From: Candidatus Woesearchaeota archaeon
GTDB lineage: Archaea > Nanobdellota > Nanobdellia > Woesearchaeales > GW2011-AR4
Assembly: GCA_016184145.1 (NCBI GenBank)
Contig: JACPDF010000021.1
Location: forward strand, 8,422-72,421
Direction: 5' to 3'
DNA: 64,000 bases
This document shows, piece by piece, positions 26,750 through 33,153 of the stretch (position 1 is the first letter of the stretch; every line of letters starts with the position of its first letter). A model generated the notes under the pieces. It was not told where the DNA came from and searched no databases. It saw only the letters and a list, made by a program, of their open reading frames with translations. Position numbers and translations under genes: made by a program.

Positions 26750-26760
26750 GGATAAAAAAG

Positions 26761-26868
26761 CCTCCGGTGGGATCTGCACCCACGACCTTTGCCTTTTTAG
26801 GCTGCATAGTACCAAGGCTTCGCGGATACTTTTGGTATCTAACGCAATAGCTACTATGCTACGGAGGC
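26761..26868 (-). ncRNA. tRNA-like structured small RNA (non-canonical; possibly an intron-containing or degenerate tRNA)
   Basis: On the minus strand, a 5' GCCUCCG pairs with a 3' CGGAGGC. A T-arm-like GUGGG-UGCAGAU-CCCAC is present. An internal 8-bp helix GCAUAGUA/UACUAUGC encloses a hairpin GAUAC-CAAAA-GUAUC. The element is followed by an oligo-T run. It does not fold as a canonical 76-nt cloverleaf. Confidence 0.3.
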
Positions 26869-26915
26869 GTTAATTAGTGAAAATCTAGGCTTGTTTTTAA
26901 AAATTGCTATATATA

Positions 26916-27776
26916 CTAAGAATATAAGGTGGTCTTTATGTAACTCAAAGGCAAATCATTAAAATTAGGGTAGAAAGTAAGAGGATTTAAACGACCATTC
27001 AAAACCTTAAGCCTTTCATTCAAAGTGGTATAAGGAGGGCAAAATCCAGATTTCTCCCAAATGTTTACTTTAGTAACATGTTTAAGATTCTTAAAACCAA
27101 TGTCTTTTATCCATTTTAAGACATCACTTTTGGAGTCTACTATCACTGAGTGCATAGTATATTCATTTTTTCTTTGTTTTATAGGCTTTTGAATTCTTGG
27201 ATGAAAACCCAAACCTATTAATAAACTATAAACTTCTTCAATTAGAGTATAAGATATTGTAGCTAGTTTTATTTTTGGCCTATAATGAAAAGCATTATAA
27301 ATTGATTTTTTCTTTCTCTTGTTGTAACTTTTGCAAAAATAGATACTTCCATCTGTATCAAACAAACCTCTAATAAAACATATTTTCTCTCTTAGAGTTT
27401 TTATTTTAAAGGGTACAGATATTGCATATTTTTTACCGTTTTTCAAATTAAAATTGCTTTGCAGAAATTGAATAAAATCTCTTTGAAAAACATAAATTCC
27501 ACAAACTCCTACAGATTTATAAATCCTCAACTTTGCCGGATTATTTAATTGACTCGTAAATAAACGATTAAAAGTTGGGACGACAACTTTTTTGTAGAAT
27601 GGGTATTCCTCAACAATATCTCCTGTTAAAGTGTATTGGTAGTGCCGTTTATTAATACTTATACAGCCATCGCCAACATGCCAACCCAGAAATTCTGCTA
27701 ATTCTTCTGAATAATCTTTATTCTCTCCATTATTTGAATTATTTTCAAAATCCAAAATTATATTTTGATTTTTCAT
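26916..27776 (-). CDS. free-standing LAGLIDADG homing endonuclease (two-motif type)
   Basis: Two LAGLIDADG motifs, LAEFLGWHVGDGCIS and IRGLFDTDGSIYF, in a basic 286-aa protein. Confidence 0.8.
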   Translation of the reverse strand: MKNQNIILDFENNSNNGENKDYSEELAEFLGWHVGDGCISINKRHYQYTLTGDIVEEYPFYKKVVVPTFNRLFTSQLNNPAKLRIYKSVGVCGIYVFQRDFIQFLQSNFNLKNGKKYAISVPFKIKTLREKICFIRGLFDTDGSIYFCKSYNKRKKKSIYNAFHYRPKIKLATISYTLIEEVYSLLIGLGFHPRIQKPIKQRKNEYTMHSVIVDSKSDVLKWIKDIGFKNLKHVTKVNIWEKSGFCPPYTTLNERLKVLNGRLNPLTFYPNFNDLPLSYIKTTLYS

Positions 27777-27779
27777 ATT

Positions 27780-28315
27780 TCAGGAATTGGTTTAGGAAAA
27801 AACAAAATAATTAAGATTTGGATATTTAAATACTCTACGCGCGAATGTCCAGTGGAGTATTGGCATGTCCAGTGGGTAAAAAGAGAAGAAATGCGGAGGA
27901 GGGGACTCCCAAATCCTGAGGGATTTGTGGTCTCCCTCTGGGATATTTGAACCCCCGGACCCACTAAGGGACAGGATATCTTCGTTACAACAGAAGTGTC
28001 CAATATGGGCCACTGCTGACCTTAAGTTTCGCAGTGAATTTCTATCCCTCCTGCGCGTTTGGCCAGGCTTCGCTACCTCCGCATCAAAGCCAAAAGAAAA
28101 GAAAACCCTATTTAAACGTTACTGTTAGGAAACTTTTGTATACCCAAGTGACATATGTCACTAGGGAGATATTGAAATATATCGACTACAAAATCAAAAG
28201 GTTGTTTTCAGGTTTGCTCTTCCACTGAAAGGGGTAATAAGGGTTTTTTTGATATCTTTGACGACAAATGGATCTAGCATTGCATTGGTGACAAATGTCA
28301 CTAGGGCGTACACTG
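27780..28315 (-). other. 0.5-kb non-coding region with tRNA-like and palindromic repeat structure
   Basis: No ORF of plausible coding quality. On the minus strand, a 7-bp terminal helix GCGGAGG/CCUCCGC (28082->27891) encloses a tRNA-like 5' end (GCGGAGG-UA-GCGA-AGCCUGGCCAA-ACGC), a T-loop-like GGGGGUUCAAAUAUCCC and several hairpins. Duplicated motifs are GTGACA(T/A)ATGTCACTAGGG (28148..28166, 28288..28306) and ACTGTTAGGAAACTTT (28121..28136, 28312..28327). Confidence 0.35.
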
Positions 28316-28837
28316 TTAGGAAACTTTAATCTTGTACAGCTCAAAAAAGCTCTTCAAGCGTTTATGCAACTCGTAGCAATCAGCTTGTACAGGTCCCTCA
28401 TACCTTTCCGTTATAGTCTGCCCTATTCCCCATATGTATTTGTCATAAAGAGTCCTGAAAAATACGTACAAAGGATTCACCTGAGTCCATCTTGACCTGA
28501 GGATTGTTTCCACCCAGCCATCTATGTTGACAAAAATATTAGCCTCGTTAAACTTTACATACCTCCCTCTCCTTTTCTGACTTACTTCCCTTACATTATC
28601 AAACAAAGCCCTCAGCTTTATCATGTGCTTTACCTCTCTCGCTGGGCTTTTCCATAGTTCAACTGCATATTCTATCCTTTTGCCTTTTGATTTTACTTCC
28701 TCTGATTTTCTCTTTATCTCTTTCTCAAGGCCTTTTTCCCTAGCCCATTTGTCAACTTCTTTATAAAAATCTTCTACTGACAATGGTCCATTGTACTTAA
28801 GCATTAAATCATAAACTACTTGTTTTTTTTCTACCAT
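28316..28837 (-). CDS. unknown-function protein, paralog family member 1 of 3
   Basis: 173 aa. It shares Y-GP...F..I....E.G......SKGK-IE...WK...W-Q-P-F-R-IY--F-YK with 28842..29384 and, more distantly, with 29591..30211. Confidence 0.55.
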   Translation of the reverse strand: MVEKKQVVYDLMLKYNGPLSVEDFYKEVDKWAREKGLEKEIKRKSEEVKSKGKRIEYAVELWKSPAREVKHMIKLRALFDNVREVSQKRRGRYVKFNEANIFVNIDGWVETILRSRWTQVNPLYVFFRTLYDKYIWGIGQTITERYEGPVQADCYELHKRLKSFFELYKIKVS

Positions 28838-28841
28838 TTGA

Positions 28842-29384
28842 TTAATGCGCGGATGCGAAAGGCGCTGCTACCGATATTACCTTATAGCTCCTGTATGTGT
28901 TTAAAAACTGCTCAATGGTGTGGTGCAAATGATGCATGTCATGGGTCAGCTGCTGCTCAAACCTCTCAGTGTAAATTTTGTAGACAAAATTGTTGTAGAT
29001 TGACCTTAAAAACTGAAAAAATGGGAATTGCTCCCATCTGTTTGACTCGTCAAGCTCAAGGTAAGCATCGATATAAATAACCGCCCTTCCGTTCCCAACC
29101 TTGACTTTTTTATTCTCCATTATGGCTTCAACTTTGCTGTAGTCATAAATCAAAATTCTGATTTTAGGCCAATACCTGGCATAATCTGATATTCTTTTCC
29201 AGCATTTTATCTGCCATTCTATTTGTTTTCCCTTGGAGGTGTTATTTTCAAACTCCTTTTCCGTCTTTAAATCCCACCCTCTCTCCTTTAGAAAAGCGGT
29301 TATGTGCTTGAACAATGAGTTGGCATCAAAAGGCCCTTCATAATTAAGCCTTAGATGGTCAACAGTCAGCCTTAACTCAGACAT
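28842..29384 (-). CDS. unknown-function protein, paralog family member 2 of 3
   Basis: 180 aa, 4 nt downstream of member 3's intergenic region and 4 nt upstream of member 1, so members 1 and 2 form an operon. Confidence 0.55.
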   Translation of the reverse strand: MSELRLTVDHLRLNYEGPFDANSLFKHITAFLKERGWDLKTEKEFENNTSKGKQIEWQIKCWKRISDYARYWPKIRILIYDYSKVEAIMENKKVKVGNGRAVIYIDAYLELDESNRWEQFPFFQFLRSIYNNFVYKIYTERFEQQLTHDMHHLHHTIEQFLNTYRSYKVISVAAPFASAH

Positions 29385-29391
29385 GCTAAAA

Positions 29392-29418
29392 ATTCACCTC
29401 GTGAATTTTTGCACACAA
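29392..29418. promoter_or_regulatory. perfect 10-bp inverted repeat at the promoter of paralog 2
   Basis: AAAAATTCAC-ctc-GTGAATTTTT lies 8-35 nt upstream of the ATG of 28842..29384. Confidence 0.4.
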
Positions 29419-29495
29419 GAGCGAAGCTCTGTGCCGAACTCCGTTCGTGCACCGAAAATCTAATGGAAATCTCTTTGAAATTCTTTGAATTTCTA

Positions 29496-29578
29496 AGAGA
29501 TACAGAAAATCTTTGATTTTCTCGTATCTTTGATTTCCAGTAGATACCAAAAATCCTTTGGATTTTTTAGTATCTTTG
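29496..29578. repeat. two adjacent imperfect ~32-bp palindromes between paralogs 3 and 2
   Basis: GATACAGAAAATC-TTT-GATTTTCTCGTATC and GATACCAAAAATCC-TTT-GGATTTTTTAGTATC. These could be a terminator or an operator. Confidence 0.35.
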
Positions 29579-29590
29579 ATTTTCATGTGT

Positions 29591-30211
29591 TTATCTCACC
29601 TTGGCGAAGTACCTGTGTTCATATCCTTCAGCTTCCATCTTTAGCCTTTCTTTAACCAAAGAATGCAGTTTCAGGAAAACATTATAATGCATGGTGTCCC
29701 ACCATATGGCCTCTATCTTTTTCCATATGACATATTTGTGGTAAAAGTTCCTTAAATTGACATAGAAGGCATTTTCCTCCCATCTTTTGTCATAATCAGT
29801 CTCAACCTTTCCTAGGAATTGTATCCACAATCTTCCTTTTGTAAAGGTTTTTTTTGTGCCGTCTTTCATGGCAACTTCCACATCCTGTGTGTCGTATGTA
29901 TGCAGGAACAGCGTGATAACAAAGCGGTAATATTCCTCAACGTCCCTCTTTGCCTCCCACACATGATATGTTTCAGGACCGAAGGGCCCGGGATGCTTCA
30001 CAATATACCTTTTCTCATAAAACTTGAACTTGTTCTTAGTAAAAAAAGAAGCCACAAACTCATACAAATCCTGCATGTCCCAGACCCCCTTATATTGTAT
30101 GTATGTTGGCCATGTAGGCGCTTCCTTATGCGTCCAGGGTAAAGGTTCCACCATGAGAAAATTCCCGTATAGAATGTATATAAATGTTGCGGAAAATTTG
30201 TGATTTCGCAA
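29591..30211 (-). CDS. unknown-function protein, paralog family member 3 of 3
   Basis: 206 aa, a divergent member of the same family, with the motifs Y.G...L..F..F, WE..R, LR.FY.KY. Confidence 0.5.
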   Translation of the reverse strand: MRNHKFSATFIYILYGNFLMVEPLPWTHKEAPTWPTYIQYKGVWDMQDLYEFVASFFTKNKFKFYEKRYIVKHPGPFGPETYHVWEAKRDVEEYYRFVITLFLHTYDTQDVEVAMKDGTKKTFTKGRLWIQFLGKVETDYDKRWEENAFYVNLRNFYHKYVIWKKIEAIWWDTMHYNVFLKLHSLVKERLKMEAEGYEHRYFAKVR

Positions 30212-30262: not shown

Positions 30263-30279
30263 TAAAAAAATTCCAAATA

Positions 30280-30358
30280 CCTCGAAAACTCTGTTTTCCG
30301 CTGGTTTTTGTTTTTTTTTTGCAAAAACCTCGAAAACTTGTTTTCCGCTGGTTTCTAC
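30280..30358. repeat. two ~29-bp direct repeats upstream of paralog 3
   Basis: ACCTCGAAAACTCTGTTTTCCGCTGGTTTTT and ACCTCGAAAACTTGTTTTCCGCTGGTTTCT are separated by a T-run. Confidence 0.4.
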
Positions 30359-30360
30359 TG

Positions 30361-30921
30361 CTAAGCAAACAGTTTTTCCTGCTTGGCGCAACTCTCGCAC
30401 AAAACAGTCCCTTTTACTTCCCTCACTTTCTCAGAATACTCACCGCACTCCTGGCATATGCCCTCAGTAGGTATTATCCTGTTTATCGGCTTCCTGCTCT
30501 CTTCCTTTAACTCGAATTTCTCAACTATAAGCTCAAAAAGCTGCGGCTCTATCTTCAGGATGTCTTTTATCGTGAGCAATCCAACTATTTCATTGCCCTG
30601 CACAACCGGAAGATGCCTTATGTTGTTGTCCCTCATCTTTATCAGGGCATCGTAAATGTCCGCATCAGGATTTATTGTTATCAGTTCTGTTTCCATGAAA
30701 TCCCTTACCTTCGCTTTTTTTAGGCTGATGCCCTTCGCAACCGCTTTCCTAACGATGTCTTTTTCAGTTATAATCCCTAAAGATTGCCCATCATCCTTTA
30801 CAACAACAGCGCCTATATGGTTGGAGTCCATAACCCTGGCGCACTCAGGCAGTGTAAAGCCCGACGTAACAGAAATAACATTTATCGTCATCGCATCCGC
30901 AACCTGAATGCCTGATTTCAT
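30361..30921 (-). CDS. CBS-domain pair protein with a C-terminal C4 zinc ribbon
   Basis: Two CBS motifs (…HIGAVVVKDDGQSLGIITEKDI… and …NIRHLPVVQGNEIVGLLTIKDI…) are followed by CQECGEY…CESC. Confidence 0.8.
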   Translation of the reverse strand: MKSGIQVADAMTINVISVTSGFTLPECARVMDSNHIGAVVVKDDGQSLGIITEKDIVRKAVAKGISLKKAKVRDFMETELITINPDADIYDALIKMRDNNIRHLPVVQGNEIVGLLTIKDILKIEPQLFELIVEKFELKEESRKPINRIIPTEGICQECGEYSEKVREVKGTVLCESCAKQEKLFA

Positions 30922-31278: not shown

Positions 31279-33153
31279 TTAATAATTAATCAGAATCTCA
31301 ACATCCTTTCCGAATATATTCTTAAGGTTCTCGAATATTGGCTCTTTTATGAAGACTTTTGCAGGTATTTCCACTGTTGCAAGCGCTTTCTCAAGCTCTT
31401 CAATGGAGCTTTTCTGCACTGTTCCCAGGCTGCCGTCATCCTTTATCTTTGCCCTGCTTATCTCTTTCTCCTCGTGGTCAATGTCATGGATTATGAAGGC
31501 ATCCTTGTCCAGCAATATTACCTCTCCGTACCTGCTGCCGTGCTTCACCCTTATCTTTGCCCTTTCCAGCTCCCTCCCTCTTTTCCTCTGCATATACTCC
31601 ACCAAAAACTTGATAAGCTCGTTTGAGTCTTTCTGCACCTTGTCAACCTCGTTCTTCGTAAGCTTCTTCTCATCATAATCTTTTTTTGCCTGTATTATCT
31701 CATTTAAAATCCTTAAGAACTTTGCGGGTATTTTCCCCTGGCTTATCAGCTCGTTCTCAAACAGGTTTACAACCTCCTCATCCTGTACCTTTTCTATTCC
31801 CTCCATCCTCAAAACGTCCCTTATTATAGTCACAATGGTCTCATAAATCTTCACCATGTCCTGCTCTTCCTTCATCTTTTCTATCTGCGTGAACAGCCTC
31901 TTTATCCTCTTGAGGTACTTGTCGCTCTCGTTTAGCAGCTCGTCTATCTCCTTCCCTGTCATGTCTTTTTTCTCGCCGTGCTCTATTGCCTTTCTTGTCT
32001 CTATGACTTTTTCCAGGGTTTTTATGAATTTATCCTCGAGCAGCTTCTCTTTCTGCACGAAAATCTGCCTCATCAGGGATGCGGTTTCTTTAGGTGCCGG
32101 TGGAGGAACGCCATGCAGCATCAATGCTGCCTGCGACGGGGTTAAGATGGCATAATAAATGTCTTCCATGCCTATATCCTTCAGTTTTAATTCCACTCTT
32201 TTGAGCATCTGCTCTCCAGAGCCCATGAACATGTCAATTGCCTCGGCGCTTGGCTTAATTTTGCCCATCTTGAGCAGATATTTCCACGGCATAAATATGC
32301 CCCTATCATAAAATGGAACGCCGTCTCTCAGCAAAGTAAATATTATCGGGTTGGCTTCCCTTAAGCTGTCCCAGAAATCAGTCAGTATATATACCTGGAT
32401 GTTAAGCTTGTTTTTTATCCCGGTTAAATCCCCTGCTTCAATGCCCATCCCTATAATGATGGCCCTTAACTTGTCTTTCAGCTCTGCCCTCGTCATCTTC
32501 TTTACATCAGTGTCGTCAATTACAACCCAGACATCAATGTCTGATGTCGGAGTGGCTCTTCCCTGTATCAGGCTTCCAGCCAGAACATAGCTGATGATAT
32601 ATTTCTCAAACTTCTTAAGGACCATGGTCTTGTGGACTTCCGCAATTTTAATAGCCGCCAGCATGCCCCTGTCAAAGATTGGAGCAGACATCGCTATTAA
32701 TTGCAGCAGCTCATATTTGGCATCATAGCAGTTCTGCCACAATTCCGATAAAATCACGGTCTGCGGCGCAAGGTTTTTGTCAATCTCCTGCGCAATATTG
32801 CCTATTATCACAGAAAGCTTATCCTTAAGCTCAAACTTGGACATTTTCCTGCTGTCAGAATCATCAACAAGAACCAGCACATTTATTTTGTCTTTGTCTT
32901 CCGGCTTCTGCTCTTTCTGCTCTTCCGGCTTTGGAGGAGGCAATAAAGTTATTCCTGCTATGTACTTGTCAAATTTCTCCAATGCTTGCTTCTGGAACTT
33001 GTCCAGCTTTACCTTTATTGCTTTTAGCTTTTCCTGCACATCTTTAGGCAATTTGTCAAAGGCAGCTTTTTCCTGCATAACCATGTCTTTGTCTGGCTTC
33101 TGCTGCTTCTCATTGCCGTTTTTCTTCTCGTATTTCTTTGATTTTTTGGCCAT
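31279..33153 (-). CDS. Pol-beta-superfamily nucleotidyltransferase domain protein (GlnD/DUF294-like), 624 aa
   Basis: Minimal NTase motif GSLIQGRATPTSDIDVWVVIDD, with a second degenerate NTase-like segment (NVLVLVDDSDS). The N- and C-terminal regions are K/E-rich and probably coiled-coil. Confidence 0.5.
   Translation of the reverse strand: MAKKSKKYEKKNGNEKQQKPDKDMVMQEKAAFDKLPKDVQEKLKAIKVKLDKFQKQALEKFDKYIAGITLLPPPKPEEQKEQKPEDKDKINVLVLVDDSDSRKMSKFELKDKLSVIIGNIAQEIDKNLAPQTVILSELWQNCYDAKYELLQLIAMSAPIFDRGMLAAIKIAEVHKTMVLKKFEKYIISYVLAGSLIQGRATPTSDIDVWVVIDDTDVKKMTRAELKDKLRAIIIGMGIEAGDLTGIKNKLNIQVYILTDFWDSLREANPIIFTLLRDGVPFYDRGIFMPWKYLLKMGKIKPSAEAIDMFMGSGEQMLKRVELKLKDIGMEDIYYAILTPSQAALMLHGVPPPAPKETASLMRQIFVQKEKLLEDKFIKTLEKVIETRKAIEHGEKKDMTGKEIDELLNESDKYLKRIKRLFTQIEKMKEEQDMVKIYETIVTIIRDVLRMEGIEKVQDEEVVNLFENELISQGKIPAKFLRILNEIIQAKKDYDEKKLTKNEVDKVQKDSNELIKFLVEYMQRKRGRELERAKIRVKHGSRYGEVILLDKDAFIIHDIDHEEKEISRAKIKDDGSLGTVQKSSIEELEKALATVEIPAKVFIKEPIFENLKNIFGKDVEILINY

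Follow-up and report, generated by a model that had tools for sequence, protein, structure and literature searches.

The helix-grip proteins of the SRPBCC/Bet v 1 class, among them the START, PYR/PYL/RCAR, AHSA1/YndB, Ups1/PRELI and aromatase/cyclase families, are domains of about 150–200 amino acids (aa) with an aromatic-rich interior, in which seven strands and two short helices are combined with a long C-terminal helix. Two further groups of alpha/beta proteins are relevant here. The repeat of the TATA-binding protein (TBP) is a beta-alpha-beta4-alpha unit of about 90 aa, and the Cyt/volvatoxin A2 toxins are secreted proteins of patchy distribution, built from a single alpha/beta domain of about 200 aa. 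At the level of assembly, the alpha and beta subunits of the archaeal proteasome and of prefoldin provide examples of hetero-oligomers in which duplicated subunits of one fold stand side by side. Here, we describe three consecutive minus-strand genes, m3, m2 and m1, in a 64,000-nucleotide (nt) stretch of a Candidatus Woesearchaeota archaeon genome (assembly GCA_016184145.1, contig JACPDF010000021.1, positions 8,422 to 72,421 of the forward strand), referred to below as the window. The Woesearchaeota, tiny DPANN archaea, rank with the most widespread archaea not yet cultured, and no role has been assigned to most of the genes specific to their lineage.

Like the proteasome and prefoldin subunits, the m3, m2 and m1 proteins are paralogues of one predicted fold, encoded in a fixed order with tight spacing, and have single-copy relatives in other lineages. 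They differ in having no homology to those subunits and in that their assembly is putative. From sequence comparison, the three genes are ancient copies of one uncharacterised protein, and we are highly confident that they constitute a conserved core operon, vertically inherited and specific to Woesearchaeota. The full interpretation, a core operon encoding a non-enzymatic, hetero-oligomeric binding module of helix-grip type for a hydrophobic ligand, is offered tentatively.

The m3-m2-m1 operon

The genes and their promoter are as follows.
29591-30154, minus strand: m3 (187 aa), at the head of the operon and the best conserved of the three paralogues
28842-29384, minus strand: m2, second gene of the operon, 180 aa (open reading frame (ORF) list, BLASTP, family profile and structural model)
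28316-28837, minus strand: m1, third gene of the operon, 173 aa (ORF list, BLASTP and family profile)
30177-30184, minus strand: TATA box TTTATATA of the operon promoter, read from the sequence, 23–30 nt upstream of the m3 ATG

An earlier reading of this DNA, made from the sequence alone (the sequence-only reading), had noticed three related minus-strand genes, and their paralogy was borne out by pairwise BLASTP and by hidden Markov models (HMMs) built from orthologues. The m1 and m2 proteins share 27% identity across 169 aa (E=1e-24), m2 and m3 share 25% across 130 aa (E=2e-7), and m1 and m3 match at E=2e-4. The m3 HMM matches m2 at 5e-16, the m2 HMM matches m3 at 6e-13, and a match of the m1 HMM to m3 at 4e-9 supports the most distant pair. 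The description "clearly related" was thus apt for m1 and m2, but m3 is much more divergent than the phrase suggests. Between 80 and more than 200 orthologues were found for each gene, at 45–90% identity. These comparisons establish m1, m2 and m3, at the sequence level, as real genes and true paralogues. A scan of the window with the m1, m2 and m3 family HMMs found no further paralogue.

The ORF list gives m3 as 29591-30211, 206 aa from a TTG at 30211, a length that the comparison did not uphold. Since the homologues are 186–187 aa long and the TATA box found across species would sit inside the longer frame, translation almost certainly begins with the ATG at 30154, for a protein of 187 aa.

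We surveyed the operon by a pattern search with an m3 alignment, using one genome per GTDB species, and classed the ORFs of the resulting 66 loci by family HMMs. In 62 of these 66 species-representative Woesearchaeota/Nanoarchaeota loci, m3, m2 and m1 follow one another in this order on a single strand, with median intergenic gaps of 8 nt (m3-m2) and 4 nt (m2-m1). Of the other four, two reach the contig end before a third gene (L024 and L056), one has two m3-like genes before the contig end (L037), and one is divergent and single-copy (L075). The window itself has 4 nt between the m2 stop and the m1 start; this confirms the gap on which m1 and m2 had been called an operon, and the two genes are translationally close.

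Of the 62 loci, 58 have a TATA-like site 19–40 nt before m3, 2 have one before m2 and 5 before m1. The box homologous to TTTATATA (TTTAAATA) is kept before m3, together with the next ~30 nt, in 58 of the 62 related loci, and the ~35 nt that run from the TATA box up to the start codon of m3 are strikingly alike between species whose synonymous sites are saturated. A Shine-Dalgarno (SD)-like motif precedes m2 in 37 of the 62. Because the TATA box stands before m3 only, the gaps are tight, m2 is preceded by an SD-like motif and the TATA-to-ATG stretch is conserved, we conclude from these sequence features that m3, m2 and m1 form a single transcription unit with a strong promoter. The distance of 23–30 nt between the TATA box and the m3 ATG points to a very short or absent leader. 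The sequence-only reading had given m3 its own promoter. The promoter does sit before m3, but it is not private to that gene and is that of the whole operon.

The three genes are under purifying selection, as judged from codon comparisons. Against orthologues, the proportion of nonsynonymous differences (pN) is 0.10–0.26 and that of synonymous differences (pS) is 0.65–0.9, which is saturated. A ratio of nonsynonymous to synonymous substitution rates (dN/dS) among the three copies, as proposed in the sequence-only reading, is meaningless at ~25% identity; the comparison with orthologues instead gives 0.06–0.17, where dS is estimable.

The window is collinear from eRF1 to a DsbD-like gene with the groundwater Woesearchaeota metagenome-assembled genome (MAG) GCA_016180235.1. 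The shared order is eRF1, a SprT-like gene, a gene for a 624-aa nucleotidyltransferase-like protein, a CBS-domain gene, m3, m2, m1, an ATP-cone gene and the DsbD-like gene. The amino-acid identities to this genome are 82% for m3, 79% for m1 and 67% for m2. Every named homologue stems from a MAG of Woesearchaeota or Nanoarchaeota (DPANN). Records of homologues under the names "Bacteroidetes" and "Methanosarcinales" were set aside as binning or naming artefacts, since every neighbouring gene is of archaeal DPANN type.

A neighbour-joining tree of 201 sequences, calculated without bootstrap support and indicative only, placed each of the positions m1, m2 and m3 in one clade in 59 of 60 loci. Its deepest split separates m3 from m1 plus m2. 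On the m3 side, the single-copy members L079 and L075 take the basal position, and the extra gene of the four-gene loci L045, L060 and L062 is a later m3 duplicate. Copy number varies elsewhere, from one in L079 and L075 to two tandem genes in L076 and three in L080; L082 has two complete tandem copies and a truncated third at the contig end. The basal position of the single-copy members and the variation in copy number between lineages indicate that the set arose by duplication from a single gene.

To this family we could assign no curated name, in agreement with the sequence-only reading, which had recognised none; profile searches led to no curated family and to no housekeeping family. The m1, m2 and m3 proteins have no significant match in Pfam, NCBIfam, PHROGs, PADLOC or the sequences of the Protein Data Bank (PDB), and neither do 150 diverse family members and 115 m3 family members scanned singly against curated libraries. 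A family profile search over 1.84 billion cluster representatives (50% identity clusters) returned at least 1887 clusters at E<=1e-3, 1190 of them at E<=1e-10. The best 150 of the 1887 matches are 102–222 aa long, mostly 165–190 aa. Many of these 150 score equally against the m1 and m2 profiles and therefore belong to more distant lineages. The importance of the operon is marked by its near-universal presence in the sampled species, its consensus promoter, the purifying selection on its genes and the size of this uncurated family, which merits a curated family entry.

Three leads from sequence searches were rejected. RtcR (Pfam) is matched weakly by 36 of the 115 m3 members (best E=0.021), but these are close relatives whose hits are not independent, and the N-terminal domain of RtcR is Rossmann-like. 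The VapW antitoxin, the top PDB sequence match of the superfamily profile (E=0.017), is matched over one helix-rich stretch of 43 residues only, and its fold (PMC11980593) differs from the topology predicted for the family, which lacks the ferredoxin-like beta-alpha-beta-beta-alpha-beta core of VapW/VapD (Cas2-like). The label "uridine kinase" attached to one m2 homologue (P0008) in one source is supported by no kinase model.

Predicted fold and proposed function

The m1, m2 and m3 products are predicted to be soluble proteins of ~20 kDa, without a hydrophobic segment (maximum 19-residue hydropathy 0.71) or a signal peptide and with few or no cysteines (family medians 0–1). They are rich in aromatic residues. 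Phe, Trp and Tyr together make up 20.9% of m3, the maximum in the window, and 16.1% of m2, above the 90th percentile of the window. Only Y15, G17, G52, W117 and L153 (m2 numbering) are conserved at >=90% across the superfamily. Since no polar residue is conserved superfamily-wide, a shared catalytic site is unlikely and a binding function more likely; in the mechanism we propose, the complex would bind rather than catalyse.

AlphaFold2 models from deep alignments were obtained for m2 (predicted local distance difference test (pLDDT) 85.7, predicted template modelling score (pTM) 0.75) and m3 (pLDDT 84.4, pTM 0.77). Both contain a strand, a 14-residue helix, four antiparallel strands of 11–21 residues and a C-terminal helix of 42–45 residues, that is, a beta-alpha-beta4-long-alpha order. 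By DSSP, m2 consists of a strand at 2–18, a helix at 21–34, four strands and a helix at 122–166, and m3 of a strand at 17–25, a helix at 27–40, four strands and a helix at 129–170. The C-terminal helix is amphipathic and aromatic. The short tails that follow it are conserved within m2 and within m3, yet modelled with low confidence.

In Foldseek searches against the PDB, the m3 model gave 8 matches at E<1e-3, all of them PYR/PYL abscisic-acid receptors (best E=1.3e-4, probability 0.97), followed by START domains, Ups1, aromatase/cyclases and SMU.440. The m2 model gave no PDB match at E<=1e-3; its top matches include MtN13, CERT-START, PYL1 and Ups1. The best PDB sequence match of the m3 profile is the START-type YndB of B. 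subtilis (E=0.076), in the same register from helix 1 to strand 4. Both models show the helix-grip element order of a strand, one or more helices, an antiparallel sheet and a long C-terminal helix, and with their length, aromatic-rich interior and top class of structural matches they resemble the SRPBCC/Bet v 1 proteins.

Several observations count against a helix-grip module for a hydrophobic ligand. The YndB match lies below significance. Superposition on helix-grip structures is poor, with template modelling (TM) scores of 0.16–0.28, short of the value of ~0.5 taken as the criterion, and root-mean-square deviations (RMSD) of 14–18 A. The SRPBCC models of Pfam (START, Bet_v_1, AHSA1, Polyketide_cyc, CoxG and others) match none of 265 members at E up to 0.1 or 10. 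The family has five long strands of 11–21 residues and one short helix where the SRPBCC/Bet v 1 proteins have seven strands and two short helices. The ligand pocket is putative, with indirect support from the amphipathic aromatic helix and the aromatic content. For the hetero-oligomer, the evidence is gene order only. Finally, the membrane protein that is linked to the family in other lineages (described below) has no homologue in the 64-kb window. The family differs from SRPBCC/Bet v 1 proteins also in its C-terminal helix, which is nearly twice as long, and in its occurrence as a fixed three-paralogue operon. In element order and local packing the models agree with the helix-grip class, and superfamily membership is not established, since two of the tests that define it failed. 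We regard a helix-grip-type fold as an evenly balanced proposition.

The same element order can be read differently. One repeat of TBP has an identical secondary-structure order, and m1, m2 and m3 could form a hetero-oligomer that binds nucleic acids through the aromatic and basic residues on the exposed face of a TBP-like or Whirly-like sheet; an RNA chaperone or a chromatin protein would be examples. The isoelectric point (pI) of ~9.1–9.3 in all three families and the high aromatic content would suit such a role, as would the high expression suggested by the consensus promoter and the position of a tRNA-Leu gene directly after m1 in nearly all loci. A basic pI is, however, ordinary in this genome region (window median 8.5, 43% of window proteins above 9), and the tRNA gene has its own TATA box, so that the adjacency need not be functional. 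The family domain is 170–187 aa long with longer strands and a longer helix than the TBP repeat. The TBP family is absent from the matches, no nucleic-acid-binding protein occurs in the top 50 Foldseek matches of either model, and library scans found no known nucleic-acid-binding motif. We consider nucleic-acid binding unlikely.

The structural matches of m2 raise a second alternative, namely that the proteins are membrane-active or pore-forming in the manner of Cyt or volvatoxin and are used by an episymbiont on the membranes of its host. Volvatoxin A2 and Cyt1Aa give the best TM scores for m2 (0.29–0.35; probability 0.99 for 1pp0_A), recur for m3 and resemble the family in being single alpha/beta domains of ~200 aa, and many DPANN archaea are host-dependent (PMC6349945). 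These scores are below the reliable threshold (TM <0.4, best 0.35; E ~0.01, best ~0.008). The toxins are secreted or crystal proteins, whereas the family has no signal peptide or hydrophobic segment, is cytoplasmic by sequence and consists of core chromosomal genes. Nor are toxins typically inherited in a strictly vertical manner, kept at a fixed three-gene stoichiometry or driven by a promoter of housekeeping type. A pore-forming function is accordingly very improbable.

Returning to the helix-grip binding module, the mechanism that we propose starts from one transcript, which would yield equal amounts of the m1, m2 and m3 products. These would assemble into a cytoplasmic hetero-oligomer, derived from a homo-oligomer by gene duplication; on the evidence of the operon we judge such a hetero-oligomer moderately probable. 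In each subunit, the long helix would pack on the curved sheet and line a putative hydrophobic site. As both the topology and the closest structural matches favour a helix-grip module, the likeliest cargo would be a hydrophobic ligand such as a lipid or an isoprenoid. As a specific assignment from the models, a carrier of hydrophobic ligands is nonetheless doubtful.

Neighbouring genes and candidate partners

The flanking ORFs of the 66 loci were clustered, and two recurrent contexts emerged, clade A, which includes the window, and clade B. The neighbours in the window are as follows.
30361-30921, minus strand: 186-aa protein with a CBS pair (Pfam CBS, 1.5e-28) and a C-terminal zinc ribbon, upstream of m3 and co-directional
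31279-33153, minus strand: 624-aa protein with a weak nucleotidyltransferase-domain match
27892-28082, minus strand: tRNA-Leu(UAA) gene
~26760-26870, minus strand: second tRNA-like gene, kept in L001, L083 and L084

In clade A, ~21 loci encode a full-length orthologue of the CBS/zinc-ribbon protein 33–383 nt upstream of m3, in the same orientation. In clade B (27 loci), a divergently oriented gene next to m3 encodes a protein of ~480 aa. A signal or anchor stands at its N-terminus, a second transmembrane segment is present, and the C-terminal domain is weakly DUF11-like. Both contexts meet in L079, where a CBS/zinc-ribbon gene, a single-copy family gene and the gene for a 458-aa protein homologous to the membrane protein (E=1e-9) follow one another on one strand, and a CBS/zinc-ribbon orthologue also adjoins the single-copy gene of L075. 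Because these partners flank single-copy genes, the link to the CBS and membrane proteins seems older than the duplications. This linkage is the best available clue to function, and gene context makes the CBS/zinc-ribbon protein a probable functional partner. In the proposed mechanism, the complex would act with the CBS/zinc-ribbon neighbour, a nucleotide-sensing-type module, and with the single-pass membrane protein linked in other lineages.

The membrane protein also provides an argument for a third alternative. Here the family would be a protein-binding adaptor or chaperone, which, like an Eag/SciW chaperone, would shelter hydrophobic or membrane-spanning stretches of the linked single-pass protein, without a small-molecule cargo. 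Among the Foldseek matches of m2, SciW (6xrb, 9mvg) and 3lyd have the lowest RMSD (6–9 A) with probabilities of 0.69–0.87, the ~480-aa signal-plus-transmembrane protein recurs beside the family in the 27 loci of clade B and in L079, and conserved tails modelled with low confidence, as in m2 and m3, are expected of docking motifs. The TM scores of these matches are only 0.24–0.38, the Eag chaperones have a different order of secondary-structure elements, and in the window's own clade the membrane protein shows no linkage to the family. An adaptor of this kind is rather improbable.

For a carrier of hydrophobic ligands, the biology of the lineage offers a possible setting. Genes for lipid biosynthesis are missing from many DPANN archaea, and the membrane lipids of Nanoarchaeum seem to come from its host (PMC6349945). 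A lipid-handling role is attractive in this light and unproven. Its most specific form is a DPANN-specific, hetero-oligomeric lipid or isoprenoid carrier that acts with a nucleotide-sensing CBS/zinc-ribbon protein and a surface-exposed single-pass membrane protein and takes up or distributes membrane lipids which the reduced cells cannot make; in all its parts, we hold this to be a long shot. If the proteins were hydrophobic-ligand carriers, they would bear on how DPANN archaea get lipids and would give a first molecular handle on the acquisition of host lipids. Irrespective of such a role, the family would be a clean example of a homo-oligomer that became a fixed three-gene hetero-oligomer.

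On the other side of the operon, tRNA-Leu(UAA) directly follows m1 in nearly all loci, with its own TATA box at 28109-28116 in the window, and we treat the adjacency as conserved synteny only. The window copy was not detected by ARAGORN or Rfam. The L083 orthologue has one intron at the canonical site, to which the window copy adds two insertions, one of 22 nt ahead of the anticodon loop and one of 40 nt within the T-loop; the extra insertion of L084 is a different one, after position 9. The second tRNA-like gene, likewise missed by ARAGORN and Rfam in the window, is probably a tRNA-Thr(GGU) with insertions, as in L018 and L032 the corresponding position is called tRNA-Thr(ggt) by ARAGORN.

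Two observations concern genes farther from the operon. The 624-aa protein, at 95% identity to its counterpart in GCA_016180235.1, is more conserved than eRF1 (93%), and its gene precedes the CBS gene in 10 related loci. In the divergent lineage of L076 (4253-6125), L077 and L078, two tandem family genes are divergent from a GTPase-OapB-OapC (origin-associated protein) set.

Mobile DNA and repeats beside the operon

Two insertions and an enlarged spacer lie in or next to the operon.
26916-27776, minus strand: free-standing LAGLIDADG homing-endonuclease gene (Pfam LAGLIDADG_3, E=4.9e-10)
28137-28312 (28121-28327 with repeats): 176-bp element with 25-nt inverted ends that contain the palindrome GTGACAWATGTCAC
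29385-29590, minus strand: m3-m2 spacer, 206 nt, against a gap of 1–20 nt in most relatives

The endonuclease gene lies between tRNA-Leu and the tRNA-Thr-like gene. These tRNAs are 5 nt apart in L083 and L084, and in L001 the gene would not fit into the syntenic gap, which argues for a recent insertion. The 176-bp element is flanked by an exact 16-nt direct repeat, ACTGTTAGGAAACTTT, the second copy of which overlaps the m1 stop codon. The closest relative, L084, carries the uninterrupted target (~1175-1205), and no other copy of the element was found in the window or in the fetched loci. By its structure, it looks like an insertion of the kind of a miniature inverted-repeat transposable element (MITE), with an unusually long target duplication.

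The sequence-only reading had placed the triplet in one co-directional block with the homing endonuclease and the tRNA-like RNAs, and had suggested on this ground that it may be cargo of a mobile or hypervariable island. The nearby endonuclease gene and the 176-bp element with its target duplication, which abuts the m1 stop codon, are what this view has in its favour, and these insertions explain the suspicion. The presence/absence survey and the check for island signatures, both suggested at the time, gave a different picture. The operon ranks with the stablest parts of the region: it is kept in order in 62 of 66 loci with each position in its own clade, the flanks are syntenic and collinear, and close relatives keep the operon without the endonuclease gene and without the small element. 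The composition is normal, with a GC content of 0.375–0.410 for the three genes against a window gene mean of 0.387 and both GC and GC at third codon positions (GC3) inside the window spread. No family relative was found in phage, plasmid and IMG/VR viral collections. The operon thus shows neither patchy presence nor odd composition nor co-travelling mobility genes, the tRNA downstream is an ancestral neighbour rather than part of an island block, and the mobile DNA merely landed beside the genes. From these comparisons the triplet is ordinary chromosome, and the island reading is excluded.

Between the CBS gene and the m3 promoter, at 30271-30354, there are two repeat copies ~47 nt apart, TGTTTTCCGCTGGTTT (exact) and TTCCAAATACCTCGAAAACT (90%), each of which contains a GAAAAC...GTTTTC palindrome; the window holds no further copies.

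The m3-m2 spacer is, from its length in relatives, a lineage-specific insertion. A 66-aa ORF within it (29386-29586) has no family match and was judged spurious. The spacer is predicted to be highly structured, with a minimum free energy of -74.5 kcal/mol (z=-9.8 against shuffled controls). Its 3' 65 nt are 100% identical in L084, where m2 and m1 have 85% and 76% nucleotide identity. The SD-like GAGGTGA at 29394-29400, which precedes the m2 ATG by 9 nt, lies within the last hairpin of the spacer (29388-29410), AAAAATTCAC-GAG-GTGAATTTTT; this hairpin is also present in other loci whose spacers are long. The spacer could represent either a regulatory RNA or a recent mobile insertion.

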